This document shows, in pieces, positions 1,556 to 39,672 of a DNA stretch of 60,773 nt (position 1 is its first letter; each line of letters opens with the position of its first letter). Source of the DNA: Limisphaerales bacterium. GTDB lineage: Bacteria; Verrucomicrobiota; Verrucomicrobiia; Limisphaerales; UBA11358. The notes beneath the pieces were generated by a model. It was not told the DNA's origin. It searched no databases and worked only from the letters and a program-made list of their open reading frames with translations. The stretch covers positions 1-60,773 of the forward strand of contig PMOA01000060.1 in the NCBI GenBank assembly GCA_003161635.1, in the 5' to 3' direction. Both the position numbers and the translations under genes were made by a program.

Positions 1556-2028
1556 TTTCTTTTCGGCGATGGTATCCGCCCCGTTCCTGAATTTATAAAC
1601 ACCATCGGTTCAAAATTGATTTGCCACATTTTCCCCTCTGGCACAAAGACTTTCGCGCTGTCCGCTTTGCTCCCATCACAAAAGACTTTGCGCCAGCCCG
1701 ATATTGGCGCGACCAAAGCAGCGTAACCGTTCTCCGAACCGCCTCCGGCTAATTCTCCGCCCGGTAACACCGCTTCCGTCGCGATACGCCTTCGGTTTCT
1801 GATTGGTAGCGGGGACCGGAACGATTCGTCGTCCTTTTGCATTTCCCTGTTAAGGTGACGCTGGTAAATTTTCGGCACGCACAACCAGTCCTTCAACGGC
1901 TAATAATTCCTCGACACGGTTCAGAAATGGGCGTATTCAGCGAACACTGAACACGCTCCTTAAATAGGAATGGGGTTTCGAATTCAAATTTGATTGCCAA
2001 AAGACGAATTGATTCCAAAATTGACCTT

Positions 2029-2295
2029 GTGAAATTTGATTCCCAAAAAATCATTCAATACTTAAATACTAAATGGGCAGTCAAGCCATGCCCAATGTGC
2101 GGTATTATCAAGTGGAACGTTTCCGATAAGCTTTTCGAACTTCGAGAATATCATGGTGGAGATCTTGTGATCGGCGGACAAGCGTCAATTATACCGTTGA
2201 TACCAATTATTTGTAGCAATTGTGGCAACACGATTTTCATAAATGCAATTGTTGCCGGTGTTGAAATTCCTGGTATTCCCCCTCCTGCAAAATGA
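2029..2295 (+). CDS. Small zinc-ribbon protein (CPMC...CSNC)
   Basis: Two CxxC pairs; GTG 2029 (alternative TTG 1990); TGA overlaps next ATG. Confidence 0.8.
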   Translation: MKFDSQKIIQYLNTKWAVKPCPMCGIIKWNVSDKLFELREYHGGDLVIGGQASIIPLIPIICSNCGNTIFINAIVAGVEIPGIPPPAK

Positions 2296-3230: not shown

Positions 3231-3251
3231 CGGAAGGCTCATTGGCAGTCG

Positions 3252-3274
3252 CGGACACCAAAACGGACACCAAA
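3252..3274 (+). repeat. Tandem direct repeat CGGACACCAAA (12-nt period), probable integrase arm sites
   Basis: Copies at 3252-3262 and 3264-3274, about 100 bp before the tRNA fragment. Confidence 0.6.
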
Positions 3275-3368
3275 GGAGTTAAAACCGGTATAGTCGGGTT
3301 ATGACGAATTATGTTGAATAGTGAATGAAATCGGGTATATTTGGAGTGCAACAGCGGGGTAAATTGAC

Positions 3369-3389
3369 CGATTCCGACCCTCGCCTCCA
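3369..3389 (+). mobile_element. att site: duplicated 3' fragment of a tRNA, probably tRNA-Cys
   Basis: CGATTCCGACCCTCGCCTCCA = partial T-loop, T-stem, acceptor strand, U discriminator, CCA; no 5' half upstream. Confidence 0.75.
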
Positions 3390-3470
3390 TCAACGACTTA
3401 CGACGAAAATGGGTGACAAAAACCCCCATTTTTGCGAGGGTTGAAAACCGACCTCCGCCTCCCTTTCAAA

Positions 3471-3499
3471 TTCATGTTGGTCGCGGCGATGAACCCGAC
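3471..3499 (+). mobile_element. Possible att scar derived from comM/yifB
   Basis: Encodes FMLVAAMNP, a conserved ComM/YifB AAA+ motif, isolated from any comM ORF. Confidence 0.5.
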
Positions 3500-3606
3500 C
3501 GACTTTCTTTATTGGTGTCCCCGATTGATCCGGGAAAGCCAATACTTTTCTGCGCCATTTGCTCTGGATTTTCGCATTGAAGAGCAGAGAGTAATGCCGT
3601 CTGCAC

Positions 3607-4044
3607 ATGACAAATCCTCCTGATCGCGAAGTGGCCGTCTTTGGCGCTGCCCGGCGGCTGCCGGCCGGGGAGCGAGCAGCCTATCTCAATGAAGCCTGCG
3701 TCGGTGACGCGGCCTTGCGCCAGCGCGTCGAAGAACTGCTTAAGGCCAGTGAACAAGCCGGCGCGTTCCTCGAAAGCCCGGCAGCGGTGCCGCTTGGACC
3801 GGGCGGCACCATCCATCTTGAGTTGAGTCCCACCGAAAAACCCGGTGACCGCATCGGCCGCTATAAATTGCTCCAGCAAATCGGCGAAGGCGGCTGTGGC
3901 GTGGTCTATATGGCCGAGCAGACGGAACCAGTCCACCGTCGCGTCGCGCTCAAGGTCATCAAGCTCGGCATGGACACCAAAAGCGTCATCTCTATCGATA
4001 GTTTGACTTCTTTGTCACAGACGCGGGAGGCCAACTGTCTATAG
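3607..4044 (+). pseudogene. Truncated Hanks-type Ser/Thr kinase (PVC ECF-associated type)
   Basis: ERAAYL..AC.GD..LR..VE.LL N-terminus, IGEGGCGVVY, VALKVIK; similarity ends at ~3990, no catalytic loop. Confidence 0.85.
4013..4039 (+). promoter_or_regulatory. Putative ECF41-type promoter
   Basis: TGTCACA-N16-TGTC, one mismatch to the ECF41 consensus TGTCACA-N16-CGTC, 40 nt before the sigma ATG. Confidence 0.55.
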
Positions 4045-4078
4045 TGCAGAACCAAATAATATAAGGAATATAAGAACT

Positions 4079-4996
4079 ATGCAAAGCCAGGCGGAAATTT
4101 TTACTGAGTTACGGCCCGTCTTGATGACGCTCGCCCTGCGCATATTGGGCAGCGAAGTGGAGGCCGAGGATATGGTTCAGGAAACTTATCTGCGGTGGGA
4201 GCGAGCCGCCGCCACCGAAGTGCGCTCGCCAAAGGCATTTCTGACGACCATTGTCACCCGCCTCTGCCTTAACCATCTGAAGCTGGCCCGAGTGCGTCTG
4301 GAGCATGCGGACGCACCTTTGCTGCTGGACCGCTTGCCCTCCGACGCGCGCAGTCCGGCGGAGCAGGCCGGGTTCGCCGATGCGCTCACCGAGGCGTTTA
4401 TGTCCGCGCTGGGCAATCTCTCGGCGACCGAACGAGCGGTGTATCTCCTGCGCGAGGCCTTCGCGCTCGATTACGGCGATATTGCTTCGGTGGTGGACCG
4501 CAGCGAAGAGAACTGCCGCCAGATTTTAAAACGTGCCCGGGAGCGGATTGTGTCCAGGGAATCCACCGCCCGACCAGGCCGAGAGCAAACCCAGCGCGTT
4601 GTTTCGGAATTCCTCAACGCGTCTGAAACCGGTGAACTCGAGCCGCTTTTGAGGTTGCTGTCGGATGAAGCCGCGCTGGCCCGGGATCCGGGTGACCTGA
4701 CCAAGCCTGCGCCGCCCTTGATTCATGATCGCGAAATCATGTTCCAAACTCTCGGGAATGCCCTCGCGCAGATGCGCAACGCCAGCGACCGTTTTGTCCT
4801 TTTTCCCATCGGCCAGGACTACGCCTATGTGGCCCGCCGCGGCACAACCGCCAGGGGAGCAATTTTGTTGCGGGTCATTGATCAGAAGGTGGCGGTCGTG
4901 CGGCTGGTGAGTTGCCCGGTGCTGCTGCACCAGCTCCAGATTCTGATGGCTCTGAGCCTCGGTGGAGATGCTGGAAGCGATCCTCACAGCAATTGA
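4079..4996 (+). CDS. ECF sigma factor, SigJ/ECF41-like, with SnoaL-like C-terminal extension
   Basis: AEDMVQETYLRW, ERAVYLLREAF, EENCRQILKRAR, F..A...G.L..LL.LL. Confidence 0.85.
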   Translation: MQSQAEIFTELRPVLMTLALRILGSEVEAEDMVQETYLRWERAAATEVRSPKAFLTTIVTRLCLNHLKLARVRLEHADAPLLLDRLPSDARSPAEQAGFADALTEAFMSALGNLSATERAVYLLREAFALDYGDIASVVDRSEENCRQILKRARERIVSRESTARPGREQTQRVVSEFLNASETGELEPLLRLLSDEAALARDPGDLTKPAPPLIHDREIMFQTLGNALAQMRNASDRFVLFPIGQDYAYVARRGTTARGAILLRVIDQKVAVVRLVSCPVLLHQLQILMALSLGGDAGSDPHSN

Positions 4997-5156
4997 ACAA
5001 TGAAGGGAGAACGCCGCACGGTTCGCAAAGTTTTGGGGACTCCGACAACCCCTGTTTTGCCAGACACAGAACATGGAACCCCGTGAATTAATGGTTCTAT
5101 CCCCGAACGAGGATTCGTTCCAACTGTAAAAGTCGGAAACAACAATAGGCAAACAT

Positions 5157-6527
5157 ATGAAAACCATTAACTACAGAATCGGTGGTATGAGAAAAAGACT
5201 TTTTAGCATCGCCGCCGCGACGTCGAGTCTAGCTCTTTTGTGGCTGGTTAGCGCCTATGTCATCCGAGCAGCTCCCGGACCGCAGGCCGACCTGGAATCA
5301 CAGACCATTTCGGTGGAGCTGAACGCTTTATTGAAAGTAAACGAGGGCCGGAACATCTTCCGGTATGACACGTTCGGGGATCAGGCATTCTGGGGTGACG
5401 CCCTCAAGCTGCACCAGGCGATTGAGGGAGCCAATCTGGGCGGGGTCGGCCCCGGTGTAAGCCCCAGCACCGCTTTGGCCGTTGGATTGAAAGTGGACGT
5501 GGATACTTTGCCCCAGTCTCTGAAAAGGAAATTGGCCGCCGGGCAGGTGGATTTGAACGACCCGGCCAATACATTGGCGCTGCTGAAGCTCAATGCGGTT
5601 GTCGGCGTGACGGGTTTCTTTGACCGGCAGAATCGCCTGACTTCTCTCGGAATTCAATGTGCCTTGTGTCACTCGACTGTGGACAACTCGTTTGCGCCCG
5701 GTATTGGACACCGCCTTGACGGCTGGCCCAACCGCGATTTGAACGTCGGAGCCATTATCAACCTCGCCCCAGATCTCTCTCCGTTCGCCAATGCCCTGCA
5801 AGTGGATGAACCCACTGTGCGCACCGTCCTGCAAAGCTGGGGCCCCGGCAAATTCGATGCGGAGCTGCTGATGGACGGGCAGGCCTTTCGTCCGGACGGA
5901 AAATCCGCCGCCACACTGCTGCCTGCGGCCTTTGGCCTGGGCGGAGTCAATCTCCACACCTACACCGGCTGGGGTTCGGTCCCATATTGGAACGCCTTTG
6001 TGGCCAACCTGGAAATGCAAGGTTCAGGCCGGTTTTTCGACCCGCGCCTCAACGATGCCAATACCTTCCCGGTGGCCGCCCGCCTAGGCTTCGCGAATAT
6101 CAAGGCCGACAATGACCTGATCACCAGCAAGCTGGCAGCGCTGCAATTTTATCAACTGGCCCTCCCGGTTCCCAAGCCGCCGCGCGGCAGCTTTAACGCC
6201 GCCGCCGCCGCCCGCGGCAAGTCTCTATTCGAGGGCAAGGCCAACTGCGCCACCTGTCATGTGCCGCCACTTTACACAGAACCGGGTTGGAACATGCACA
6301 CGCCCTCGGAAATCGGGATTGACGATTTCCAGGCCAATCGCTCGCCCGACAAGCGCTACCGCACCACGCCACTGGGCGGACTCTTCGCCCGGGCCAAAGG
6401 CGGCTTCTACCATGACGGACGGTTTCCGACGCTGCTGGACGTAGTGAACAGCTACAACACGCGTTTCAACCTGGAGCTTACGCCACAAGAGAGTCAGAAC
6501 TTGGTGGAATACTTGAAGTCGCTCTGA
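5157..6527 (+). CDS. Exported di-heme cytochrome c protein (peroxidase-like superfamily)
   Basis: N-terminal signal/TM, CALCH and CATCH motifs, YRTTPL..L, FYHDGRF, LVEYLKSL. Confidence 0.85.
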   Translation: MKTINYRIGGMRKRLFSIAAATSSLALLWLVSAYVIRAAPGPQADLESQTISVELNALLKVNEGRNIFRYDTFGDQAFWGDALKLHQAIEGANLGGVGPGVSPSTALAVGLKVDVDTLPQSLKRKLAAGQVDLNDPANTLALLKLNAVVGVTGFFDRQNRLTSLGIQCALCHSTVDNSFAPGIGHRLDGWPNRDLNVGAIINLAPDLSPFANALQVDEPTVRTVLQSWGPGKFDAELLMDGQAFRPDGKSAATLLPAAFGLGGVNLHTYTGWGSVPYWNAFVANLEMQGSGRFFDPRLNDANTFPVAARLGFANIKADNDLITSKLAALQFYQLALPVPKPPRGSFNAAAAARGKSLFEGKANCATCHVPPLYTEPGWNMHTPSEIGIDDFQANRSPDKRYRTTPLGGLFARAKGGFYHDGRFPTLLDVVNSYNTRFNLELTPQESQNLVEYLKSL

Positions 6528-6528
6528 T

Positions 6529-6841
6529 CGCTCAGGGGCACTCCCTCATTGCCAGTTTGAAAGGCGAGGACGTGGACTGGACGAATGGCACCGTGAGTTT
6601 CTTCCGCAAAAAAACCGGCGTGCCCGTCATTGTCCACTTGGGCACGGAAGCATTAAACCTATTCAAAGACCTGCCCGCCGAAGGCGTGTTGTTTCCGTAC
6701 CCGGAACGATTCGCGCAGGAGGCTTTGGGCCACAACAGCAAGGCGGTGCATCGCGCCTACGCCAAACGCGCCCTGATGAAAATCCCGTCACTGGAAGATT
6801 ACGAACACCGGGCAGCCGCAAAGGTCCAACCGGCAGCATAA
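6529..6841 (+). pseudogene. Tyrosine integrase C-terminal remnant
   Basis: LKGEDVDW, RKKTG, YPERFAQEALGHNSKAVHRAY (box II H and Y); N-terminus and the HxxR segment missing. Confidence 0.8.
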
Positions 6842-7018
6842 ACGCTCGGATGGTTCAATTGGTAAAAGTAGCTGGGGTAAAAGCCGTGGCGTGTGAGAGA
6901 GCAAATGCCGCGCAATGTTGTCAGCGGCAAATCTTATCGAGGGATTTATATTCGCGGCTCGAAGTCGCGAATCGCGGTTGAGTTGAAGGCAACTTTTGAT
7001 ATCATCGTAAACACTTTT

Positions 7019-8017
7019 ATGAAAACCTTGCCAATCTTGGTGGCGATTCTGGCGGCGGCCTTAACTTCTTCCGCCGCACCAATCGCGATTGAAGACATTT
7101 CACCGCATTTGTCCACGAATGCCCAAATCATCTGGAAAGCACCGACCAGCACCCTGCCCAAAAATCTTTGGGTTTATAAAATTCTTCCCAACTCATTTAC
7201 CGCGCCGGTAATTTCCAATGCAGTGGTGCTGGCTTCATTTCAGAGCAAGGGATTTCCGCAGCCTTCGACCAACCAAATAATTCTTTGGGATCATAATCGC
7301 AAGGGCGATGATCCCCTCGCTGGTGCGTTTTGCATTCTGCCTGATGCTGAGGTGATACAGTTCACAATGCGGAATCATGCTGCTGGTTCCTCCGAGGCCA
7401 TTCCAAGTGATGAGATGATTGCGAAGCGGGCGTGGGACTGCGTTGCTCAACTGGGCATTGACCGTGCGCAATTATCGCAAGGAGGAATACAAAACAATGG
7501 GTGTGAATACGACGGCAAAGGCGGGCTGGCGACCAACGACTATGTCTGTGGGCGAGCGATTACCCTCGTTCGAAAAATTGACGGGGTGGATTTTCAAGCT
7601 GAAAGCGAAGGCTTCTCGATTGAGTTTGGCAGTCATGGCACAATCCGGTCTTTCGGTCTTCATTGGCCGAATCTTGAACGCTTTGATAACCGTCAAACTG
7701 TCAGTCCCAAACAAATCATTCGTTTCATCAGGGCCAACAAAACTCCTGTGTTTCCAAATGAAAACGAGGAAACCTTTTTTCAAAGGGTCAAATCCCTGTC
7801 CCAGGCCAAAACCTTCACCATCACCAAAATCACGCTATATTATGGCGAGGGCATCTTTGGTGAAACGCCAAAGGAAAACGAGACGCCGAAATATGTTACT
7901 CCTTATGCAGAGCTTCAGGCCGTTGCTGATCTCGGCAATTCCAATTTGACTGTCCGGCTAGCTGCTCCAATCATTTTGTCAGACGTGAACCAGATATTGG
8001 GGCACAAAGCCAAGTAA
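7019..8017 (+). CDS. Secreted hypothetical protein
   Basis: Signal peptide MKTLPILVAILAAALTSSA; 332 aa. Confidence 0.75.
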   Translation: MKTLPILVAILAAALTSSAAPIAIEDISPHLSTNAQIIWKAPTSTLPKNLWVYKILPNSFTAPVISNAVVLASFQSKGFPQPSTNQIILWDHNRKGDDPLAGAFCILPDAEVIQFTMRNHAAGSSEAIPSDEMIAKRAWDCVAQLGIDRAQLSQGGIQNNGCEYDGKGGLATNDYVCGRAITLVRKIDGVDFQAESEGFSIEFGSHGTIRSFGLHWPNLERFDNRQTVSPKQIIRFIRANKTPVFPNENEETFFQRVKSLSQAKTFTITKITLYYGEGIFGETPKENETPKYVTPYAELQAVADLGNSNLTVRLAAPIILSDVNQILGHKAK

Positions 8018-8065
8018 ATCTTAAAGGATTCAGTGTCCCCTAGCCTGTTATTACGCCGACGACAA

Positions 8066-8343
8066 CTAACCACCCACCGCCACTGACTTGCCGACTCGCG
8101 AAGAATCAATGTCCAGCAAACCATTCGGCGGAAGGTTTTTCTTAGCGGCATTTCTCTTTTGCCAATGCTGGTTCAACGCATTTGTGACTTTTGCCAGCCA
8201 AGTGCGGTCTTTGACCTGTTCCAGCAGTTCCGACGCCGCAAAAAACTTGACGCTGTTCGGCGGCGGATTGCCCAGCGGCTTGAGCAACCGCACCGCCACC
8301 AGAATCGGCACATCATGCGGCTGGCAATTCAGCACCCAAGCTA
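8066..8343 (-). pseudogene. 5'-truncated mobile-element protein (HTH/excisionase-like)
   Basis: AWVLNCQPHDVPILV..RLLKPLGNP..VKFF..KDRTWLAKVTNALNQHWQKRN; no natural start. Confidence 0.55.
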
Positions 8344-8501
8344 TCACCTTGCTGGCTGACCCTGATTGGCTGGACGATGCCACGAAAATCATCGGCCAAT
8401 ACTGGCGGCGAAAGAACGCCCAGCGCCATGGTTTGACCTTGGAAAAACTGGCGGACGCTGCCCCTGTGGACTCCGTTGCCCCATCCAAAAATTGTTTCTA
8501 A
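8343..8501 (+). pseudogene. 5'-truncated paralog of the adjacent remnant, opposite strand
   Basis: ADPDWLDDATKIIGQYWRRKNA aligns with KDRTWLAKVTNALNQHWQKRNA. Confidence 0.5.
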
Positions 8502-8706
8502 AAGGCGTTAGGACAATTTGAAACGCATCACCAGTGGAGCGAACGGCAAGAAACGCGCCGATTATCCGCGCAACTCTTTGCAGTTAAACTGCTAGTTGCG
8601 ATTTTGGCTTGCCAAAGATTTTTGTGATTTTTGTTGGACATCGTGCCTAAGTTTTGCTATTTTTGTTATCAGATATGTTTGGGCCAACAAGCAGAATTAT
8701 AAACCC

Positions 8707-9324
8707 ATGAAAAAAACCAATTTAAGTTCATATTCGTCGGCGCTGGTTTTGGCGGCCGGTCTTTTCGCGGCAACTTTCCCGGCGGCAGGTCAATCTATAC
8801 TCATCGACATAAATCAGAGCAACCCTTCCGCCGTGCAATTCATCGCCACCGGTGCCAGCCCCATCGTTAATGATTTCAGTGTGTATAATTTATTCGGTGT
8901 GGATCTCAACAGTTACTTCACCGCCTCCGTAGCCGGCGGAGGTGCCGCCACCGGCAGCCTCATTCCCGCCGGGACAACCGCTGCCTACACCCAATGGTTC
9001 TCCGACAATCTGCTCAATAGCCCCAACACTGTGGATTTGAATTTGTATACCAGTAGCAACCCGCAGCTTCAGAATTTCAGCATCTCTAGCGCAGCTTTTA
9101 CCGGCACGGCAAACATTAATTTGTCTAGCTTGCTCGCAGATCTTCCTACCACCGGCACGAGCGGTCCGATCTATTCCGGAGACAGCCGTTCGTCGGGCCA
9201 GTTGATTGGCACTTGGCAGGTCGTGCCCGAGCCGTCGGTGGAGGCGCAACTGGCGCTGGGCGCAGTGGTGTTTGCGGGACTGGCGCTCGTCCGTCGCGCA
9301 CGCCGCGTGGCGGCCCGCCGGTGA
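8707..9324 (+). CDS. PEP-CTERM sorting-domain surface protein
   Basis: Signal peptide, S/T/N-rich body, VPEPS + TM helix + RRARR tail. Confidence 0.9.
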   Translation: MKKTNLSSYSSALVLAAGLFAATFPAAGQSILIDINQSNPSAVQFIATGASPIVNDFSVYNLFGVDLNSYFTASVAGGGAATGSLIPAGTTAAYTQWFSDNLLNSPNTVDLNLYTSSNPQLQNFSISSAAFTGTANINLSSLLADLPTTGTSGPIYSGDSRSSGQLIGTWQVVPEPSVEAQLALGAVVFAGLALVRRARRVAARR

Positions 9325-27168: not shown

Positions 27169-28461
<1,293 letters not shown>

Positions 28462-30100: not shown

Positions 30101-31264
30101 TTGTTAGACGGGCGCACTGTGAGCGTACTGCTGGTCAACTACGACGGATTCGCCTTCCGGGACGGCGAAGAAGATCAGGCGCTTTCCGGCCGCCTCCTGT
30201 TCACCCTCAGCTATCTCCGGTTTGAGCATGTGGATGGCACCTGGGAGCTGCCGTTGCAACGCCTGACCCTCGATCAAAACTCCGCCGGCAACCTGATCTT
30301 TCACGACGAAGAAACCGGTTGGTGGTTTGAATCTTCGGACGTGCGGATTTTGAATGATATTTTTCTGCTCCGGCAGACGCACCTCCGGACCCAGGCGCGG
30401 GAATTGCGCGAACGGCGCGAAGGGAATCGCAGTCTCAAATACGCGCTGATATTTTTGGCCGGGTTTGCCGGTTTTTTTTTCATCGGGTGGTTGCTGGTAA
30501 AGGCCGCCGCCAATTCCCTGGCCAATCACGCCCCCGTTGCGTGGGAGGAACACCTGACGGACAAGGTCATCGCCGAACATCCGAAATTGTTCGTCATTGA
30601 CACCAATGATGCCCGCATTACCGTCGTCACCCAGTTGGTGGCGCGCCTTGCCGCCGCCCTGCCGCCGGCGGAGCGCCGTTATCAATTTCGAGCCGCCCTC
30701 ATTGACCGGCCTGTGGTCAATGCCTTTGCCCTGCCGGGCGGAAGAATTTTCGTTTTCACCGGCTTGCTGGACCGCGTCCAAAAACCGGAGGAACTGGCCG
30801 GCGTGCTCGCGCACGAAATGGCCCATGTCACGCAACGGCACGGCCTGCGAAAACTCATCGCCGGCGGCGGACCTTATTATGTCCTGCGGCTGTTCGTCAG
30901 CGACCAGCAGGGAGTATTGTCAGTCATCAGCGCCGGCTCCCAGTTGCTGGTCAACCAGTATTATTCGCGCGACGTGGAACGCGAGGCGGACACGATTGGA
31001 TGGCATTACCTGATGGCAGCCAACATTGACCCGCGCGGACTGGCCGATTTTTTCCAGCTTCAGACGGAGAGCGAAGCCACCACCACCATCCCCGAAATGT
31101 TTCGCAGCCATCCCGCCACCAGCGAGCGCATTGCTTCCCTGAACCGGCTCTGGGAAAAGAGCGAGCGGAAAAGCGGGTTTGTCCAATTGCCAGCCATGAC
31201 CAACGCCCCCCTTACATCCCTTCAGGAGCGGCTTCTTCGCTCCTTCAAATCACCTCCCAAATAG
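30101..31264 (+). CDS. M48-family metalloprotease
   Basis: NAFALPGG, LAHEMAH, YSR..EREAD, SHP; start uncertain. Confidence 0.9.
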   Translation: MLDGRTVSVLLVNYDGFAFRDGEEDQALSGRLLFTLSYLRFEHVDGTWELPLQRLTLDQNSAGNLIFHDEETGWWFESSDVRILNDIFLLRQTHLRTQARELRERREGNRSLKYALIFLAGFAGFFFIGWLLVKAAANSLANHAPVAWEEHLTDKVIAEHPKLFVIDTNDARITVVTQLVARLAAALPPAERRYQFRAALIDRPVVNAFALPGGRIFVFTGLLDRVQKPEELAGVLAHEMAHVTQRHGLRKLIAGGGPYYVLRLFVSDQQGVLSVISAGSQLLVNQYYSRDVEREADTIGWHYLMAANIDPRGLADFFQLQTESEATTTIPEMFRSHPATSERIASLNRLWEKSERKSGFVQLPAMTNAPLTSLQERLLRSFKSPPK

Positions 31265-31329
31265 CCTGGAAAGGATCACCGCGTCCATTTTGCATTGCCA
31301 CTGTGCGTTTTTTTGCTATGAATTTCCAC

Positions 31330-31395
31330 GGCAATGGAGTTTGCCGTCCCATCATGGGAAAACCGTCCCGATTCATCGGGACTGATGACTTCTAC
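31330..31395 (+). ncRNA. Fluoride (crcB-motif) riboswitch aptamer
   Basis: GGCAATGGAGTTTGCC...AAACCG-stem-CTGATGACTTCTAC matches the GGCGAUGG..CGCC..AAC..GCUGAUGAC.CCUAC consensus. Confidence 0.9.
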
Positions 31396-31500
31396 CTGGG
31401 AGGGACGGCGTGCCGCCGTCCCTGAAAAAAATAAATGGGCCGGCAATATGCCAGCCCTCCCATAATCGGGAAAATTTTGGCTCCAGGCAGGAGTTTGTTT

Positions 31501-32730
31501 ATGCATGAGAACATTTGGTTTGTGGCGGCCATCTGGATGGGATTGGCATTCATCGCCAGCTTGATTTCCATCCGCGTCGGCATTTCCGTCGCACTCATAG
31601 AAATCCTGGTGGGTGTCATCGCCGGCAACATTCACTTCGACGGCGGCCAGCACATTTTACAAACGACCGATTGGATCAACTTCCTGGCGATGCTGGGCAG
31701 CGGCGTGCTGACGTTTCTGGCGGGCGCAGAAATTGACCCGGTCTCGTTGCGCGCCAATCTTCGCGCCAGCATGGCGATTGGCGTGCTGTCGTTTTTTCTT
31801 CCGTTTGTCTGCGTGTGGCTGTTCGCGCAATTCGTGCTCGGCTGGCCGTTGCATCAGGCGCAAATCGCCGGCATTGCGTTGTCCACCACGTCCGTCGCCG
31901 TCGTTTACGCGGTGATGATCGAAGGCGGTTTTGGCCAGACTCCACTCGGCAAAACGATTCTGGCGGCGTGCTTCATCACGGATTTAGGCACGGTGCTGGC
32001 GCTCGGCTCACTTTTTGCCGACTTCAACATCTGGCTGGTGGTTTTCGTGGTAGTCACGGCGGTAGTGCTTTGGTTCATGCCGAAGTGGACCCAGTTCATC
32101 ATCACCAAACTTGGCGCGACGCGCGTGAGCGAGCCGGAAGTAAAGTTCATCTTCCTCGTGCTGTTTTTTCTCGGCGGGCTGGCGTCCACCGCTAAAAGCG
32201 AAGCGGTGTTGCCCGCCTATCTGGTCGGCCTCGTCGTCGCGGGCGTGTTCCTGCGCGACAAAACGCTCGTGCACCGGATGCGCACCATCGCGTTCACGAT
32301 CTTCACGCCTTTTTATTTCATCAAGGCGGGGCTTTTCGTCTCGCTGCCCGCCTTGTGGTCGGCGCTGGGTGTCATCATGATTCTGCTGCTGATAAAAATG
32401 GTGACGAAATTCATCGGGGTGTGGCCGCTCACCAAGGTTTTTTACATGCGCAACCGCGAGGCGAATTACACCACGCTGCTGATGTCCACCGGGTTGACAT
32501 TCGGCACCATCTCCGCACTGTTCGGCCTGCAAAACCATATCATTGACCAGGCCCAATACACCGTGCTCGTCACCGTCGTCATTCTCAGCGCGTTCGTGCC
32601 GACGCTCATCGCGCAAAAATTTTTCCAGCCCACGATTGAAACAATGGTCGAATGGGGCAAAATTTACAGCGAACGAATCAACAGCAAGAAAAACATCCCA
32701 ACATCGGATGTCGGGGCAACCGGAAAGTGA
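31501..32730 (+). CDS. Cation:proton antiporter (CPA2 family)
   Basis: About 12 TMs, FLAGAEID, LSTTSVAVV, FITD; AGGAG SD. Confidence 0.9.
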   Translation: MHENIWFVAAIWMGLAFIASLISIRVGISVALIEILVGVIAGNIHFDGGQHILQTTDWINFLAMLGSGVLTFLAGAEIDPVSLRANLRASMAIGVLSFFLPFVCVWLFAQFVLGWPLHQAQIAGIALSTTSVAVVYAVMIEGGFGQTPLGKTILAACFITDLGTVLALGSLFADFNIWLVVFVVVTAVVLWFMPKWTQFIITKLGATRVSEPEVKFIFLVLFFLGGLASTAKSEAVLPAYLVGLVVAGVFLRDKTLVHRMRTIAFTIFTPFYFIKAGLFVSLPALWSALGVIMILLLIKMVTKFIGVWPLTKVFYMRNREANYTTLLMSTGLTFGTISALFGLQNHIIDQAQYTVLVTVVILSAFVPTLIAQKFFQPTIETMVEWGKIYSERINSKKNIPTSDVGATGK

Positions 32731-32736
32731 GGCGTT

Positions 32737-33162
32737 ATGTTCAAAAAAATCCTTGTCGGTTACGACGGCTCCAAAGGCGGCAAGGCCGCGCTCCAGCGCG
32801 CGGCGGTGCTGGCCAAAGGATTCAACGCCGACCTCTGCGCCTTTTGGGTGCGTGAGTTGCTGCCGCGCCATTCCGATCTGCCCGGCGAATACGAGGAGGA
32901 AGCTGAAGCGGCGGACGAATACTTCAAGGCGCGACAGCGCGAAGTCCAGGAAGTGGCCACGCAATACGGAATCAACCTCCCTTGCGAAACGCGCCGGGGC
33001 CACGCGGCCAAAACCATTTTGCGCTTCGCCGACGAAGGCGGCTACGACCTGATTGTCATCGGCCACAGCGATCATTCCGAGTTATGGGGCCGCCTGCTCG
33101 GCGACACCGCCGACCGCATCAGCGACCACGCCCATTGCAGCGTGTTGATCGTCAAATCCTGA
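32737..33162 (+). CDS. Universal stress protein
   Basis: ILVGYDGS, DLIVIG, LLGDTA..I..HAHCSVLIVK. Confidence 0.95.
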   Translation: MFKKILVGYDGSKGGKAALQRAAVLAKGFNADLCAFWVRELLPRHSDLPGEYEEEAEAADEYFKARQREVQEVATQYGINLPCETRRGHAAKTILRFADEGGYDLIVIGHSDHSELWGRLLGDTADRISDHAHCSVLIVKS

Positions 33163-33344
33163 CCCCGCCGTTGGGCCATGAACGAATTGCCCAATCAAAT
33201 CGCGTCGCGGCTGAAAAGTGGCGGCCGGCGCGAATTGGTTTCGGAGGACATTGGCCGGTTGGTGGGCGCGCAGCAGGCGCACGGCTTTCCGCAAAGTTGA
33301 ACCATTTGACACCGGGTCGCTGCGCGAAGAAAATGGAGGCTGAA

Positions 33345-33824
33345 ATGAATATTGTTCCAAAATCCAAAACCGAAGCCCCGGTGATTCTCATCCGCCTGAT
33401 GGTTGGCGGCGTGTTTTTCATTGAAGGTGTGTTGAAGTTTCTTTACCCGGACGCCTTGGGCGCGGGACGGTTTGCCAAAATCGGCATTCTCTTCCCGCAA
33501 ATCATGGGTCCGTTCGTCGGCGGCGTGGAAATTGTCTGCGGCGCACTGGTGTTGATCGGTTTGCTGACCCGGCTCGCGGCCATTCCCCTGCTCATCAACA
33601 TTTCGGTGGCCATCCTTTCGACCAAAATTCCCATCCTGCTGGGGCACGGTTTTTGGACGTTCACGTTGCCCGACCTGCCGCGTTACGGTTTCCTGAGCAT
33701 GATGCACGAGGCGCGCACGGACTTTTCCATGGTCCTCGGCCTGGTCTTTCTGCTGTGCGTTGGGGCGGGACGATGGTCGGTGGACGGGCAACTGGCGGCA
33801 ACCGGCAAGGAAACCATGAAATGA
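33345..33824 (+). CDS. DoxX-family membrane protein
   Basis: LIRLMVG.VF, VEIVCG..V.IGLLTR, GAG.WSVD; GGAGG SD. Confidence 0.9.
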   Translation: MNIVPKSKTEAPVILIRLMVGGVFFIEGVLKFLYPDALGAGRFAKIGILFPQIMGPFVGGVEIVCGALVLIGLLTRLAAIPLLINISVAILSTKIPILLGHGFWTFTLPDLPRYGFLSMMHEARTDFSMVLGLVFLLCVGAGRWSVDGQLAATGKETMK

Positions 33825-34663
33825 AAACCTGCCAGCCCTCGCAAAAGCCATTTACAACTTTCACCACCCGGTTTAATTCCAGCCTCACCCGGACATCAAT
33901 CACATGGGCGGCCATGCTGTTTGTCTTTTCAACGCTTGGACTCCTTGCCGGCCCGCCGTTTGTCACCGACGACCCCGAACCGGTGGATTATCAACATTGG
34001 GAGTTTTACATCGCTTCACAACACGCCCAGACGTCGGATGGCTGGTCCGGCACCGCTCCGCACTTCGAACTGAATTACGGCGTCATCACCAACGTGCAAC
34101 TCCACCTCATTGCGCCATTGGCCTATGACGCCCCGAAAAATGGCGCGGCGCAATACGGCTACGGCGACACGGAACTGGGCGTCAAATTCCGTTTCCTCCA
34201 GGAAACATCCCTGCTCCCGCAAGTCGGCGTGTTCCCCCAGGTCGAAGCTCCGACCGGCGACAGCGCGCGCGGGTTGGGCAGCGGACAATGGCAGGCGTTC
34301 CTGCCGTTGTGGCTCCAGAAAAGTTTCGGCGACTGGACGATTTACGGCGGCGGTGGCTACGGCATCAACCCGGGCGCGGGAAATCAAAACTGGGGCTTTG
34401 GCGGCGCGGTAGTCCAGTGCCAGGTGCGGGACAATATTCTAGTCGGCGGCGAAATTTACCATCGCACCGCCATGCAAACCGGCGGCCGGAGCGACACCGC
34501 GTTCAACGTGGGAACCGTCATTGATTTCACCGAACACCAGCATCTGCTCTTCTCCGCCGGCCGTTCCCTTGACGGCCTGACTGATTTTCAAGTTTACATC
34601 GCCTGGCAATTCACCTTCGGCCCGGAACTCTTTCATTCGATTGCCAGTTCGTTTCGAAAATGA
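33821..34663 (+). CDS. Outer-membrane beta-barrel (MetA-phenol-pathway-like)
   Basis: Signal then GPPFVTDDP, GYGDTELGVKFRF, PTGD..RGLGSG, aromatic C-terminal strand. Confidence 0.75.
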   Translation: MKTCQPSQKPFTTFTTRFNSSLTRTSITWAAMLFVFSTLGLLAGPPFVTDDPEPVDYQHWEFYIASQHAQTSDGWSGTAPHFELNYGVITNVQLHLIAPLAYDAPKNGAAQYGYGDTELGVKFRFLQETSLLPQVGVFPQVEAPTGDSARGLGSGQWQAFLPLWLQKSFGDWTIYGGGGYGINPGAGNQNWGFGGAVVQCQVRDNILVGGEIYHRTAMQTGGRSDTAFNVGTVIDFTEHQHLLFSAGRSLDGLTDFQVYIAWQFTFGPELFHSIASSFRK

Positions 34664-34736
34664 AAGCGAATTCCACACCGCCAGGAGATGCAACCCGGCA
34701 CTGTTCTTGGTCGGGAAGTCTGGGCCGGGAGCGCCG

Positions 34737-34835
34737 GGCGACTGGAAAGTCGCCCAAACCCGCTGACAAGAATGTCCGCGCTACGTGTAGCGCAGGCTTT
34801 CCAGCCTGCGGGTTCTGGGGACTTTCCAGTCCCCA
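34737..34835. repeat. GTAG REP units, tail-to-head
   Basis: ...GTCCGCGCTAC GT GTAGCGCAGG...; same family as 22497-22627. Confidence 0.8.
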
Positions 34836-34937
34836 GTTTAAGAACGGTGTCGAGTTGCACCCATCGCCAGGGCCGGCCTTGAGCCGGACTTGTGCGTTAG
34901 CCGCCAAGTTGAGACGCTGACACGTGACGTGCATTCC

Positions 34938-36176
34938 ATGAACGAAACGCGGGAAATCCTGGCCATCGCCATTTTCGCCTTCACCTACGTTCTCATCAGC
35001 GGGCGGCGGTTGAAAATTCTTCCCCTCAACCGTCCCGCCGCGGCGTTGCTCGGCACGGTGCTGATGGTCACCGCCGGCGTGCTGACGCCCGAGCAGGCTT
35101 ACCGCGCAGTGGATTACAACACGCTCGTGCTGCTGCTGGGCATGATGCTCATCTCGGCGTATCTGAGCCTGGCCGGTTTCTTCGACTGGGCGGCCGGGTA
35201 CATCTTGAAAGCGGCGAAGACCCCGCAACGGTTGCTGCTCTACCTCATCGTCGCCTCGGGCGCGCTCTCGGCGTTGCTCGTCAATGACACGGTGTGCCTC
35301 ATGCTCACCCCGCTGGTCGTGGCCGTGATCGTGCGCGGGCGGTTGCCCCTGCCTCCGTATCTGCTGGCCCTGGCCATGAGCGCCAATCTCGGCAGCGTGG
35401 CCACCCTCGTCGGCAATCCGCAAAACATGATCATCGGCAGCCTCTCCCAACTCCCGTTCGTCCGTTTCTCCGCGTCGCTGCTGCCCGTGGCCGTCGTTGG
35501 CCTGGCCATTGAATACGCCGTGCTTCGTATCGGCTTCGGCAAAATGCTTCGCGCGGCCCGGATCGAGCGGAGTGAAGCCCACGCGCGCCCGCTCGACCGC
35601 CCGTTGACGACGATTACGCTGGCCGCGCTGGCGCTCGTGTTTGCCGGTTTTGTCGCCGGCTTCAACCTGGCCTGGACGGCCCTGGCGGGCGGAGCGTTCG
35701 TGATGGTGCTGGCGCGCCGCGACACACACCAGGTGCTCAAGCTCGTGGACTGGCATCTGCTCGTGTTCTTTGCCGCGTTGTTCGTCGTGGTGGAAGGGTT
35801 GAACACCACCGGCCTGCCGGACCAGGTTTACTCGCACTTGCGCGGCGTGTTCGGCGCCACGGAAACCTCGCAGGCCTGGAACCTCACGTGGTTTTCGGTG
35901 GCCGGCTCCAACATTTTTTCCAATGTGCCGTTCGTGCTCGTGGCCGGGAAATGGATTCCCAATTTCGCCAATCCCGCCCTGATGTGGAAGGTGCTGGCGC
36001 TGGCCACCACCTTCGCCGGCAACCTCACCATCCTCGGCTCGGTGGCCAACATCATCGTCGTGGAATCCGCCCGGGGCCATTGCGAAGTGGGTTTTTGGGA
36101 TTACGCCCGATTCGGCATCCCGATCACGATTCTGACCACGGTCGCCGGCATGGCGATCCTGCTCCTCCTCGGCTGA
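34938..36176 (+). CDS. ArsB/NhaD (SLC13-like) anion permease
   Basis: [41 protein letters not shown]. Confidence 0.9.
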
Positions 36177-36178
36177 CC

Positions 36179-37393
36179 ATGGCGAACAACCCTTCAACCC
36201 CACGCTTCCGCTGGCTCAACCGTACCGTGCTCGGCATCGGGCTGGCGTCGCTGCTCAGCGACTGGTCGCACGAAATCGCCACCACCGTCCTGCCCGCGTT
36301 CCTCGCTTCCATGGGCGCGGCGGCGGCGTGGCTGGGCGTGATTGAAGGCGTTGCCGACGGTCTGTCCAGCTTCGCCAAGATGGCGTCCGGCTTTTACACG
36401 GACAAACTGCAACGCCGCAAACCCATCGCCGTCGTTGGCTATCTCGTCACCGCGCTCGGCACGGCGTCTTTTGGACTGGCCACCGCAGCATGGCACATTT
36501 TGATTTCGCGGTCGCTCGCGTGGCTTGGACGCGGCGTGCGCACGCCCGTGCGCAAGGCGCTGCTTGCCGCTGCCGTCACGCGCGAAACCTACGGTCGCGC
36601 CTTCGGCTTCGAGCGGATGATGGATACCATCGGCGCGATTGTCGGTCCAGCCACGGCTTTTCTGTTGCTCGCCGCGTTGCAACACAATTACCGCCGCGTT
36701 TTCCTGCTGACGCTTATTCCCGGGGTTTGCGCCGCCGGCTTGATCGCGTTTTTCGTCCGGGAAAAGGAGCGCCGACCCGTGGCGCACGTCTCGTTCGGCG
36801 CACGTCTGCGTTTGCTGCCGCGGCCTTACCGGAAATTTCTCGTCGCCGTCGGAATTTTCGGCGCGGGCGACTTCGCCCCCTCGTTGTTGATCCTGCTGGC
36901 GGCGCAAAAGCTCGCGCCGGAGCTGGGCGCGGCCAAAGCGGCCAGCGTCGCGGTCGGATTTTACGTGTTGCGGAACATTTTTTACGCCGGGTTCGCCTAC
37001 GTGGCGGGCTGGCTCGCGGACCGTTTCAAAAAACAGTTCGTGCTCGCGTCCGGTTACGCGCTGGCGGCGGTGATGGCGTTGTTGATTGTGGCCGCGCCGA
37101 TGACGATTGGGCTGCTCGGCATCATTTTCATCCTCAGCGGCATCTATGTGGCGATTGAGGAAACGCTGGAAGACTCGTTCTGCGCGGAACTGGTGGGCGA
37201 GGAACATCATGGCATGGCGTTCGGCGTGCTGGCCACCGTGAACGGCGTCGGCGATTTCCTGTCGAGCATCATCGTCGGCGCGCTGTGGACGATGGCAGGC
37301 ACAAGCGTGGCGTTTGGTTACAGCGCGGTTTTGTTCTGCCTGGGCGCATTGCTGGTTTTGCGGACAAGACCGGTAACCACGGATGGACACTGA
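36179..37393 (+). CDS. MFS transporter
   Basis: 12-TM pattern, G..TDKL.RRK, GRAFGF.R.MDT.GA.VGP. Confidence 0.92.
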   Translation: MANNPSTPRFRWLNRTVLGIGLASLLSDWSHEIATTVLPAFLASMGAAAAWLGVIEGVADGLSSFAKMASGFYTDKLQRRKPIAVVGYLVTALGTASFGLATAAWHILISRSLAWLGRGVRTPVRKALLAAAVTRETYGRAFGFERMMDTIGAIVGPATAFLLLAALQHNYRRVFLLTLIPGVCAAGLIAFFVREKERRPVAHVSFGARLRLLPRPYRKFLVAVGIFGAGDFAPSLLILLAAQKLAPELGAAKAASVAVGFYVLRNIFYAGFAYVAGWLADRFKKQFVLASGYALAAVMALLIVAAPMTIGLLGIIFILSGIYVAIEETLEDSFCAELVGEEHHGMAFGVLATVNGVGDFLSSIIVGALWTMAGTSVAFGYSAVLFCLGALLVLRTRPVTTDGH

Positions 37394-37745
37394 TAACCAC
37401 CAGCCTTCGTTTGTTTCGCGCTCGCGCTCCGCTTACAAAACTTTGTCCCACGTGGGACAAAGTTTTGTCATGTCGGATTAACGTTGAAAATGCGCCGCGG
37501 GATTCGGCGCGACGAGTGCGGCACAGATTTCGTGTGGTTTCTGCCTTCATCCGATTTCGGCGCGATAAGCGCATTTTTCGCGATTGGTTTTCTGCCGCCC
37601 CGATGGGGCTTGGAAAATTATTTTTTGGGCCGTTTACCCAAAGCGTTGCCTTGGGCTATTTTTTGTCAGCCTTGCAGGCTTTTAATTCGTGTCCATTCGT
37701 GTAATCCGTGTCGCCTCTTTGTGTCTTTGTTCCTTTGTTGTTCAA
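37376..37745. repeat. Composite nested repeat region
   Basis: AACCACGGATGGACAC / ATTCGTGTCCATTCGTG arms enclosing several palindromes. Confidence 0.6.
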
Positions 37746-37798: not shown

Positions 37799-38446
37799 CT
37801 ATTGCTGTTTGTCCTTGGGATAATAAGGACCGTAAAGCAGCCCGTGGTCCTTGGGCGTCAACAGCAGAGCATTTGCCATTCGCGAAACGTCATGAGCTTG
37901 ATCGGTGGATGAATTAATGGCCTGATCAACCGCAGCCACGATCAAATCGGCAAAGATGTTTCCACTACCGCCGGAGTTTTGCTGGGCGGTGGCGGTGCCT
38001 TCCCAAAGGACCAGCCCGGTTTTTGTATCCACGAGCTTTGCTTGAACGGCGACAATGGTGGCGCTGTTGATCACCTGATACTTCGTCCCGTATTGCTTGA
38101 GCGTGACGTAAAGGACCGCATCCGCGCCAATGATGTCCCTGATTTTGTCCAGCGGAGCCTGGTGCATTTCGCCGGCGGTGGGCATGCCGTTTTCCTTCAT
38201 GAACTGGTCAACGACTACCACCGGGTATACGTAATATCCCATCTCGGCCAGCGGCATCGTAACCGTGGAGAAGTAACCGTAGGTGCCTTCAACCGCCGTG
38301 CTTTCGTTGAGCGGCGGCAGCACGAGAATGGACCGCGGCGGATGCGCGCGAAAGTTGGTGTAATCGTAGGGCTTGGTCGCACACCCGACGAGCATCACGG
38401 TCAATGCCAGGGCGCACAATCCCAGTCTTAAATGGCGCGTTTTCAT
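37799..38446 (-). CDS. DUF799-family lipoprotein
   Basis: LVGC lipobox, PRSILVLPPLNES, GADAVLY. Confidence 0.88.
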   Translation of the reverse strand: MKTRHLRLGLCALALTVMLVGCATKPYDYTNFRAHPPRSILVLPPLNESTAVEGTYGYFSTVTMPLAEMGYYVYPVVVVDQFMKENGMPTAGEMHQAPLDKIRDIIGADAVLYVTLKQYGTKYQVINSATIVAVQAKLVDTKTGLVLWEGTATAQQNSGGSGNIFADLIVAAVDQAINSSTDQAHDVSRMANALLLTPKDHGLLYGPYYPKDKQQ

Positions 38447-38802
38447 TTCGTCACCAGATTGGTCATCATGCGGTCCATGAACACGGTGGATTCCGGGAAC
38501 TGGACCTTTTCCTTTTCAAACTCCTGCCGGGCGAGGTCAGTTTTGCCCATTTGGTAGTCGAGGTAACCCAAGTACGCATGAAATCCCGGCGGAACGGGCT
38601 TGTTGGCTGAGGCGGCCTTCTGCAAATCCTCCTCCATCTTCAGCACCTGCGCTTCCGGCGGGAGCTTGCCCGGTTTCGCATAGGTGACATAAGCAAGTTC
38701 TTCGTAGTGGCCCCAATAGTAAACGGTCGGGGACTGGCATCCCGCGACCAGCACCGGGACGGCCAGCAGCCACAGCGGCAGTTTTACGCGGGCGTTGTTC
38801 AC
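38443..38802 (-). CDS. DUF4810-family lipoprotein
   Basis: VAGC lipobox, YYWG.Y, VPPGFHA.LG, FE.EK..FPES. Confidence 0.88.
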   Translation of the reverse strand: MNNARVKLPLWLLAVPVLVAGCQSPTVYYWGHYEELAYVTYAKPGKLPPEAQVLKMEEDLQKAASANKPVPPGFHAYLGYLDYQMGKTDLARQEFEKEKVQFPESTVFMDRMMTNLVTK

Positions 38803-39482
38803 TATTTCTCCGGCTTCCATTTGCCCTGTTCCACACCTTCCACCAGCCGGTTGACGGCTTCGCGAATTGCGAGATCCAAGACCTTCCCATTCAACGTGGA
38901 GTCGTAGCTCGCCGCACCTCCAAATCCCAGTACTTCGCGATTGCTGAGCGCGTATTCACCGGCTCCCTGAGTCGAATATACAACCTCCGAAGTAATCACA
39001 TCCACGATGTTCAAATTCACCTTGGAATAGGCCACCTGCTTCTTGCCGCTGCCGAGGATGCCAAACAATTGCTGGTCGCCGACTTCCTTGCGGCCGAATT
39101 CCGTGACTTCACCGGTGACAATGTAATTGGCCCCCTTCAGCTTCAGTTGCTGCCCATTGATGGAGGCCTCATTCGTTAGCGAATGCATGTTGTCGCGGTC
39201 CACCACAAGAAAACGTCCGGTTTGTTGCAGGTCAGTGATGAGGATGGTCTTGGCCTGCCCGCCCAGCCGATCCACACCGTCCGAAAAGAGGCCGCGCATA
39301 TAGGACGAATGATTGTCACAGTTCCCCACCATCAATGTGCTCCTGGGTCCGTTGTAGGGGGTGCCCGCCGATGCCACGGTCTCGGGTTTGATCGCCTGAT
39401 GCGATTCGGTCGCGCAACCGGCCAGGCCGGCGCCAACGAGCATCGCCAAAAATAAATGACTGAGTGTTTGAAACGTTTTCAT
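38802..39482 (-). CDS. CsgG/HfaB-family lipoprotein
   Basis: LAGC lipobox, LQQTGRF.V.DR, G.VTEFGR, STQGAGE. Confidence 0.88.
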   Translation of the reverse strand: MKTFQTLSHLFLAMLVGAGLAGCATESHQAIKPETVASAGTPYNGPRSTLMVGNCDNHSSYMRGLFSDGVDRLGGQAKTILITDLQQTGRFLVVDRDNMHSLTNEASINGQQLKLKGANYIVTGEVTEFGRKEVGDQQLFGILGSGKKQVAYSKVNLNIVDVITSEVVYSTQGAGEYALSNREVLGFGGAASYDSTLNGKVLDLAIREAVNRLVEGVEQGKWKPEK

Positions 39483-39672
39483 GCGACTGTCCTTTCTGTT
39501 GTTAGATGCGAGTTCGGCCATATTTTAAAATCTTAATTCCGAATCTTTCTGACGAAGTTAGATTTATGATTCTTGGAAGTAAAGTCCTGTTTAATTGAGT
39601 CAACTCGCGCGTATTTCGCGGTTCAAAATTGAATTGTCCCCTGCTCCATTTCGCGGCAAACTTCTTGTTCCT

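Follow-up and report, generated by a model that had tools for sequence, protein, structure and literature searches.

Fluc (CrcB) and CLC-F are encoded by the usual first genes behind the bacterial fluoride riboswitch. Na+/H+ antiporters form the second commonest class of proteins associated with it (PMC11139923), a riboswitch-CLC-NhaP arrangement is described in C. difficile (PMC11477304), and the Enterobacter cloacae FRM operon, riboswitch-ppaC-uspA-eno-gpmA-crcB-orf5249, is transcriptionally activated and gives two mRNAs (PMC5533749). Associations of the riboswitch with antiporters and with universal stress proteins (USPs) are already in print in these three papers. We have analyzed a fluoride-riboswitch locus in a 60,773-nucleotide stretch of DNA, hereafter the window (contig PMOA01000060.1, positions 1 to 60,773 of the forward strand), from the Limisphaerales bacterium assembly GCA_003161635.1 (4.31 Mb, 159 contigs, 94.6% complete, 1.0% contamination). 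The aptamer precedes genes for a CPA2-type cation/proton antiporter (CPA2) and a USP, followed by genes for a DoxX-family protein, a predicted outer-membrane barrel, a permease and a transporter of the major facilitator superfamily (MFS).

The locus resembles the described riboswitch-antiporter operons in having an RF01734 aptamer directly upstream of a cation/proton antiporter gene. It differs from them in that the antiporter lacks a KTN domain and is always paired with a USP, that neither Fluc nor CLC-F was found in the assembly, and that control is seemingly translational. With the Enterobacter cloacae operon it shares a multi-gene array, USP included, behind one switch, and that operon provides an experimental precedent for fluoride induction of distal genes (PMC5533749). 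However, it contains crcB and fluoride-inhibited enzymes, whereas the window array has no exporter, no switch-controlled enolase and a predicted masking of the Shine-Dalgarno sequence (SD). We propose, with a probability of roughly 0.55 for the explanation as a whole, that peat-associated Verrucomicrobiota carry a modular 'fluoride island' at one fixed place in the chromosome and that this locus is a variant of it, in which a translational switch acts on CPA2-USP, the distal genes are neighbors of this module, and the known exporters have been lost. The riboswitch and the six genes behind it are as follows (MFE, minimum free energy).

31321..31401, + strand: fluoride riboswitch aptamer, RF01734 (49 bits, E 1.4e-10, model 1-64)
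31387..31503, + strand: putative expression platform (MFE folds; tail/SD helix in relatives' leaders)
31501..32730, + strand: CPA2-type cation/proton antiporter, 409 aa (PF00999, 1.2e-39)
32737..33162, + strand: USP, 141 aa (PF00582, 1.3e-29)
33345..33824, + strand: DoxX-family small membrane protein (PF07681, 7.5e-14)
33821..34663, + strand: predicted 12-stranded outer-membrane barrel, COG4313 / Phenol_MetA_deg-like (PF13557 in homologues, and predicted fold)
34938..36176, + strand: ion-transporter-superfamily permease, CitMHS / ArsB-like, 412 aa (PF03600, 5.8e-69; PF02040, 1.7e-14)
36179..37393, + strand: uncharacterized MFS transporter, 404 aa (PF07690, MFS_1, 3.6e-29)

The riboswitch is the only Rfam match in the window (cmscan), with model positions 1-64 of 64 covered, and is present in a single copy in the 4.31-Mb assembly. 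An earlier reading of this DNA, referred to here as the original prediction, had described a fluoride aptamer followed by six co-oriented genes with short gaps or overlaps, and an enolase outside the control of the switch. The aptamer passes the covariance-model check, at 49 bits vs a gathering score of 34, and the gene array is as described, with three tight junctions (6 nt between CPA2 and USP, an ATGA overlap of DoxX and barrel, and 2 nt between permease and MFS) beside spacers of 182 nt (USP-DoxX) and 274 nt (barrel-permease). The enolase gene, at 27169-28458, lies on the minus strand and so is not under the switch. Pfam or NCBIfam models support five of the six genes, the barrel gene being the exception. 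The next gene after MFS is convergent, on the minus strand.

In the MFE fold of 31321-31520, the 3' tail of the aptamer (31387-31400) pairs with 31482-31495, with z values of -6.1 and -4.5. The SD, AGGAG at 31489-31493, lies within this paired segment, 7 nt ahead of the ATG at 31501, and the tail contains the strand that forms the aptamer pseudoknot. The platform competing with the pseudoknot strand is thus found as a predicted helix. An equivalent tail/SD helix is predicted in six of seven relatives' leaders, with CPA2 or crcB as the first gene (the exception is L041). On the + strand, the terminator scan turned up no hairpin with a U-run behind it in the segment from the aptamer to the SD region; the one site that it reported there on this strand, 31479-31495, is a short stem covering the SD. 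The riboswitch looks like an ON switch that works on translation of the first cistron, because the tail pairs with the SD in the fold and the same design recurs in relatives. The CPA2 start was placed at 31501 because homologues begin there and AGGAG sits 7 nt before it. The ATG at 31435 was rejected as a start, with homologues aligning from residue 22-25 of that open reading frame (ORF). It should be mentioned that a GC-rich hairpin element resembling repetitive extragenic palindromic (REP) sequences, at 31397-31463, sits in the loop of the tail/SD helix and has 13 further copies in the assembly. The window leader exceeds the leaders of L059, L062 and G022 by ~80 nt.

The comparisons drew on a sample of 41 related genomes, 24 of the same genus, in which ~9 kb downstream of each riboswitch was annotated (genomes are numbered G and loci L). 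A local covariance model, R1, was built from 29 riboswitches, for which RNAalifold gave six base pairs only; it finds riboswitches at E down to 1e-22, and weak or divergent copies may escape it. The ORF caller, based on a GC3 rule, is crude: the DUF190 gene in L047 was missed, and some small antisense ORFs are probably spurious.

The Na_H_Exchanger domain of CPA2 scores 136.7 bits vs a Pfam cut-off of 26.2. Among solved chains the closest is KefC (8bxg, E 7e-6). The membrane core aligns with it from residue 7 to 369, and of the KefC QD ion-site motif the Asp is retained, as TD. CPA2 differs from KefC and KefB in its weak identity, in having the membrane domain only, with no C-terminal KTN/RCK domain found in its 409 residues by Pfam and NCBIfam, and in having an adjoining USP instead of a KefF/G partner. 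It falls far below the cut-offs of the NCBIfam Kef models.

Orthologues of CPA2 occur in five of the 41 sampled genomes, each within ~930 nt downstream of a riboswitch. A metagenome scan with the CPA2 alignment gave 80 loci (78-96% identity) containing 78 riboswitch copies, all on the CPA2 strand, and at 67 of the 80 loci a riboswitch lies upstream of CPA2 on the same strand. Eleven of the 13 riboswitch-less loci have <750 nt of upstream sequence before the contig end, giving 67/69 where the flank suffices; L188 and L215 have enough flank and no riboswitch match, and copies too weak or divergent for the model may have been missed there. The arrangements are riboswitch-CPA2-USP (30 loci), riboswitch-crcB-DUF190-CPA2-USP (25 loci) and riboswitch-DUF190-CPA2-USP (12 loci). 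USP follows CPA2 in 71 of the 80 loci, and the remaining nine end at CPA2 or no more than 121 nt past it. We regard CPA2-USP as a dedicated fluoride-response module because its orthologues are nearly always riboswitch-linked.

The Usp domain of the second protein scores 104 bits vs a Pfam cut-off of 24. Its C-terminal block, G-H-S-D...G-D-T, with Asp replacing the second Gly, is invariant in all eight sequences compared, and none of the eight matches the motif that we take to mark ATP-binding USPs, G-2x-G-9x-G(S/T). Translation of USP is probably coupled to that of CPA2, because 6 nt separate the CPA2 stop codon from the USP ATG, with a similar spacing in relatives. The USP is likely a regulator of CPA2. 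A complex prediction from the CPA2 and USP alignments returned a score of 0.00 and no answer, and speaks neither for nor against such a role.

Two further features of these loci are noted. In the 12 metagenome loci of the form riboswitch-DUF190-CPA2-USP, e.g. L153, L158, L163 and L164, DUF190 is kept and crcB is gone. This suggests that DUF190 has a fluoride-related role of its own, because it stays under the switch where crcB has been lost. The literature searched gave no paper linking DUF190 to fluoride, to judge by titles and abstracts. A second, divergent enolase, 55-56% identical to that of the window, stands behind CPA2-USP under a riboswitch in L055, in L059 and in 25 of the 80 metagenome CPA2 loci; the window genome has only the housekeeping copy.

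The first gene within 400 nt was recorded for 106 riboswitch copies from the MFS-anchored and CPA2-anchored locus sets combined. It is crcB in 43 cases, CPA2 in 32 (a count biased by the CPA2 anchoring), DUF190 in 12, AAA16 in eight, dynamin and enolase in one each, and none of the 17 query genes in nine. DoxX, barrel, permease, MFS, GAF and USP never come first (0/106), and within the MFS-anchored loci MFS is first after none of 28 copies. AAA16-dynamin modules carry a second riboswitch in L059, L121, L160, L168, L170, L209 and L219, which fits locally acting switches.

Other loci extend the range of genes found with this riboswitch. The genes for an AAA_16 ATPase and for a dynamin-family GTPase recur together, in L036 too, as a module with a fluoride riboswitch of its own; to our knowledge this module has no known role in fluoride stress. 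L037 (G019:C12:16437-36436) contains four fluoride riboswitches in 20 kb, heading genes for NuoH/Mrp-like membrane subunits, an enolase, a MutS-domain protein and others. In L057 (G006, 1778-9083), the riboswitch lies directly upstream of a complete resistance-nodulation-division (RND) set (OEP, HlyD, AcrB) and a Na_Ca_ex/Cation_ATPase_C protein. L057 is a genuine two-membrane pump under a fluoride switch, and G006 has crcB elsewhere.

The history of the site was read from synteny. The riboswitch is present in 20 of the 41 sampled genomes, and the common arrangement is riboswitch-crcB-DUF190. The closest relative, G001 (L051), has the order M48-riboswitch-crcB-DUF190-barrel-[916-aa antisense gene]-permease-MFS-...-hom, and the window has M48-riboswitch-CPA2-USP-DoxX-barrel-permease-MFS-...-hom, with 81-89% DNA identity over the shared parts. 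CPA2-USP-DoxX has evidently replaced the ancestral first cassette, crcB-DUF190, because it occupies the position of that cassette in the closest relative. In G001 the 916-aa antisense gene splits permease-MFS from the switch, and the barrel gene stays on the switch side. The island site lies between the M48 peptidase gene with the divergent enolase gene and the hom operon, and the hosts are Limisphaerales-like by the labels of the closest loci. Fourteen DNA runs each cover the stretch to 93% or more, counted in sampled words; ten of the 14 are labeled peat metagenome, and eight are flagged as possible sources. The other features of the locus are the following (MITE, miniature inverted-repeat transposable element).

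27169..28458, - strand: enolase (PF00113, 1e-123), sole copy in the assembly
30101..31264, + strand: M48 peptidase gene (PF01435, 7.1e-34), syntenic with L051, conserved left border of the locus
34687..34868, no strand assigned: REP/MITE-like palindromic repeat of ~180 nt, ends approximate, in the barrel-permease spacer
37434..37468, no strand assigned: perfect palindromic repeat after MFS, likely end of the array

The enolase locus is single in the assembly by tblastn as well. The repeat at 34687-34868 has 78 BLAST matches across the assembly, its self-match included, and is flanked by a short CGCCAGG duplication. In L058, whose MFS is 97% identical, and in L059 the repeat is missing and the barrel-permease spacer measures 92 nt. 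The 274-nt gap is taken to be a recent accident of repeat insertion, because the extra ~180 nt are a dispersed palindromic repeat missing in L058 and L059. The 34-nt perfect palindrome at 37434-37468 has matches on seven other contigs. Between MFS and hom, the window contains a lipoprotein trio on the minus strand (37799-39521; GNA1162-like, DUF4810 and CsgG-like), which is missing at this position in several relatives.

The fourth gene product has no Pfam match, even at E 10. It has 2757 relatives at E<=0.001, and 30 of 46 aligned homologues match PF13557. Its AlphaFold model (pLDDT 89.9) is predicted to be 12-stranded and matches FapF (5o68, 3.7e-11) and the COG4313 channel (4rl8, 5.2e-9) in Foldseek, with TM-scores of 0.66-0.73; both entries are titled outer-membrane proteins. 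The protein is, on this predicted fold, an outer-membrane barrel like the COG4313 / Phenol_MetA_deg channels and FapF. It differs from them in that its own sequence falls below Pfam detection and no fap amyloid genes are nearby. We know of no fluoride link for barrels of the COG4313/FapF type.

The permease belongs best to the Pfam family CitMHS, and its best solved chain is ArsB (1.9e-15). Against the two NCBIfam ArsB models it scores 97.9 bits vs 457 and 82.8 vs 415, both far below the cut-off. Its orthologues (at least 71% identity) were found at ten places in nine relatives, only one of which, that of G001, is at a riboswitch locus. Orthologues of the barrel (at least 68% identity) were found at six places, two of them at riboswitch loci, and methyltransferase-DoxX-barrel-MFS arrays without a riboswitch occur in L061 and L064. 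For MFS, the PDB sequence search found no solved relative, and the Atlas gives the generic name 'MFS transporter' only. A genome scan with MFS gave 80 loci of 66-97% identity, mostly labeled Verrucomicrobiota or Limisphaerales, of which 25 contain 28 riboswitch copies, all on the MFS strand. A divergent enolase, as in the window, is present in 15 of the 80. The colinear block containing MFS usually continues into the housekeeping genes hom-thrC-AK.

Several observations weigh against our proposal. The tail/SD fold is a prediction, CPA2 is a divergent member of its subfamily (100.6 bits vs a TIGR00932 cut-off of 238.3), and with 94.6% completeness and 159 contigs the assembly leaves room for an exporter elsewhere. 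The six genes share one orientation, and no strong + strand terminator is predicted in the 182-nt USP-DoxX gap. A 963-nt RNA-library contig (X16 record 11) spans 33085-34047, covering the end of USP, the gap, DoxX and the start of the barrel gene. The distal genes may therefore be co-transcribed, and repression of CPA2 translation could then reach them by polarity. A riboswitch lies upstream of MFS on the same strand in 24 of the 80 MFS loci, down to 67% identity, and in L059 a riboswitch-AAA16 unit is followed directly by barrel-permease-MFS with gaps of 92 and 9 nt. The order MFS-crcB-DUF190 is seen in L085 and L114 (MFS identity 79% and 69%), where the crcB-DUF190 pair is a distant one, with 31-33% identity to the crcB of the genus.

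In one alternative, the whole array would form one fluoride-responsive transcript, with untranslated CPA2 causing polarity (e.g. through Rho) or mRNA decay, MFS, a recurrent partner of riboswitch/crcB units in this phylum, acting as an accessory fluoride-related transporter, and barrel and permease traveling along; we consider this explanation unlikely, though less so than the two alternatives below. It draws on the co-orientation and the three tight junctions of the array and on soil/wetland RNA-library contigs that are 95-99% alike and cover parts of the locus, in which X16 record 11 bridges USP-DoxX-barrel and X16 record 15 the permease-MFS junction. Read-through into DoxX-barrel is possible, because an RNA-library contig bridges these genes. 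However, an RNA-library contig across several genes is not equivalent to one transcript, and such libraries can hold DNA. Many contigs have loose ends at 34735-34787, within the repeat. Among the contigs listed none bridges 34728-35079, where the repeat breaks assemblies, and nothing is read from this. The terminator scan found 23 sites vs 11.7 expected, mostly inside genes, and the consensus promoter scan found 2 vs 2.0 expected; a candidate promoter at 33306-33334 was given no weight, as transcription would start inside the DoxX ribosome-binding site.

The locus comparisons also fall on both sides of the single-transcript explanation. For it speak the 24 riboswitch-MFS loci, 17 of which have no opposite-strand ORF called in between, six further MFS loci with crcB and no riboswitch, among them the two with the order MFS-crcB-DUF190, and the occurrence of barrel-MFS behind riboswitch cassettes of three different kinds. 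Against it speak the continuation of the block into hom-thrC-AK, the absence of any case with MFS first after a riboswitch, the antisense gene that breaks the array in the closest relative, and G022, where riboswitch-CPA2-USP is present and no MFS orthologue was found. The order pattern of MFS fits a functional link to fluoride units and is suggestive only, because the same block runs into the housekeeping hom operon. We infer that the distal genes are independent of the switch, and direct switch control of these four genes is not supported by the sequence comparisons.

Whether the genome has a conventional exporter bears on the second alternative. In this assembly, PF02537 gave no CrcB match among seven scored candidates, and tblastn with CrcB and DUF190 of two relatives found none. 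The assembly contains two CLC genes (602 and 615 aa), whose products are nearer to ClcA (1.4e-33 and 2.4e-30) than to the solved CLC-F (2e-13, and none at 1e-10). The CLC-F signatures are GNNLI/GMGLI, GREGT/V and GEVTP (PMC11139923). Both CLCs have none of the three, and the signatures are likewise absent from eight CLCs of the crcB-less relatives G017, G022, G042, G043 and G045. The organism thus appears to be without both known fluoride exporters, and the original prediction, which had noted that Fluc and CLC-F are missing from the operon, is extended to the whole assembly.

It is conceivable that a conventional exporter has been missed, being in the unassembled 5% or too divergent, and that the locus is then an ordinary accessory antiporter operon; we judge this improbable. 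In its favor are the incomplete, fragmented assembly, the presence of crcB in three of the five CPA2-bearing sampled genomes (G011, G028, G037), and one conserved CLC with an unusual filter (GSTNL, GREGG). On the other side, we take the loss of crcB to be real because relatives have their crcB at exactly this site, and the site is unbroken here and has none. The Pfam CRCB model detected crcB in 33 of the 41 genomes of the sample and in 11 of 14 controls. In seven relatives whose site is likewise without crcB (G017, G022, G041-G045), CrcB was not found either, which makes loss by chance from all of them unlikely, with the limits that related genomes are not independent and that the completeness figures, 83-95%, do not extend to G041-G045. 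G041-G045, which hold L058, L059, L062, L061 and L134, in that order, were picked because their locus lacked crcB, and the count refers to crcB elsewhere in the genome. At 602 aa vs 421 in the solved CLC-F chain, the unusual CLC carries a long extension at its C-terminus, and it is nearer to ClcA.

This CLC, L002 (G000:C127), is a conserved protein of 602-605 aa with orthologues in L138-L140, L142 and L144. Its filter region, GSTNL or GSSDL, GREGG and GVFTP, fits no CLC-F signature, and it also departs from the GSGIP pattern that we take to be canonical.

The weakest explanation is that of the original prediction, a candidate fluoride export system spanning both membranes; permease or MFS would then expel fluoride, and the barrel would pass it across the outer membrane. 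In its favor, none of the known exporters was detected in the assembly, the array has an anion-type permease and an MFS, and the barrel fold is of a channel type. We hold this very improbable, and a trans-envelope exporter made by the six genes is not supported. Orthologues lie away from the riboswitch for permease at 9/10 places and for barrel at 4/6, DoxX-barrel-MFS exists without a riboswitch, and crcB-less genomes do not share permease or MFS, with no MFS found in G022 and its permease off the switch. No periplasmic adaptor (HlyD/membrane fusion protein) or TolC-like factor was found among the six products by Pfam and NCBIfam, and the barrel is of the COG4313/FapF type, not an OEP. In general, an anion this small does not require an outer-membrane channel of its own.

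We return to the proposed translational switch on CPA2-USP. Without fluoride, the aptamer 3' tail would pair with the SD of CPA2. With fluoride, the tail would be taken into the aptamer pseudoknot, leaving the SD free, so that CPA2 would be translated and USP with it by coupling. HF entry acidifies the cytoplasm, and fluoride is trapped in proportion to the pH gradient (PMC11139923). CPA2 would be a Kef-like exchanger of K+ or Na+ vs H+, probably regulated by the USP, and could tune cytoplasmic pH and the pH gradient, and hence the build-up of fluoride as HF enters. Such an antiporter can help in two ways, by proton expulsion or by a Kef-like proton influx that shrinks the gradient, because HF entry acidifies the cell and traps fluoride by the pH gradient. 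Given an organism without an exporter, we lean slightly toward the Kef-like influx. DoxX-barrel and permease-MFS may be two tightly coupled pairs that were inherited as neighbors and are perhaps reached by read-through.

The regulon is of a known kind, and it is the lineage that is unusual, being apparently free-living and, as far as the assembly shows, without the known exporters. The original prediction had antiporter, USP and MFS genes recurring under this riboswitch with largely untested roles; the recurrence of antiporter and USP is borne out by published reports, and that of MFS was unconfirmed in the literature searched, where no characterization of the antiporter-USP role was found either. 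That literature yielded no characterized riboswitch-linked CPA2-USP pair or such antiporter, no apparently free-living lineage keeping the riboswitch without both exporters, and no cassette-swapping site of this kind. With the present data, a CPA2-USP orthogroup is defined in which 67 of the 69 loci whose upstream flank is long enough are riboswitch-linked. One chromosomal site appears to swap fluoride cassettes, namely crcB-DUF190, DUF190 alone, CPA2-USP, enolase and AAA16-dynamin.

More than 85% of surveyed strains have Fluc or CLC-F, and the exceptions tend to be reduced-genome intracellular symbionts (PMC11139923). The 4.3-Mb environmental genome described here senses fluoride yet shows neither exporter, in contrast to this trend. 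We suggest tentatively, as a possibility, that an apparently free-living lineage of peat Verrucomicrobiota dropped both exporters, kept the riboswitch, and defends itself mainly by a riboswitch-gated, Kef-like CPA2-USP through which the pH gradient is reset. A bolder version would make CPA2-USP, or the adjoining MFS, a fluoride exporter of a third kind. Where peat is acid, a channel that lets fluoride out passively would, combined with HF entry, amount to a proton leak, and the loss of Fluc could therefore be adaptive. The organism may thus offer a natural background in which the roles of riboswitch-linked antiporters and USPs could be measured without a masking exporter.

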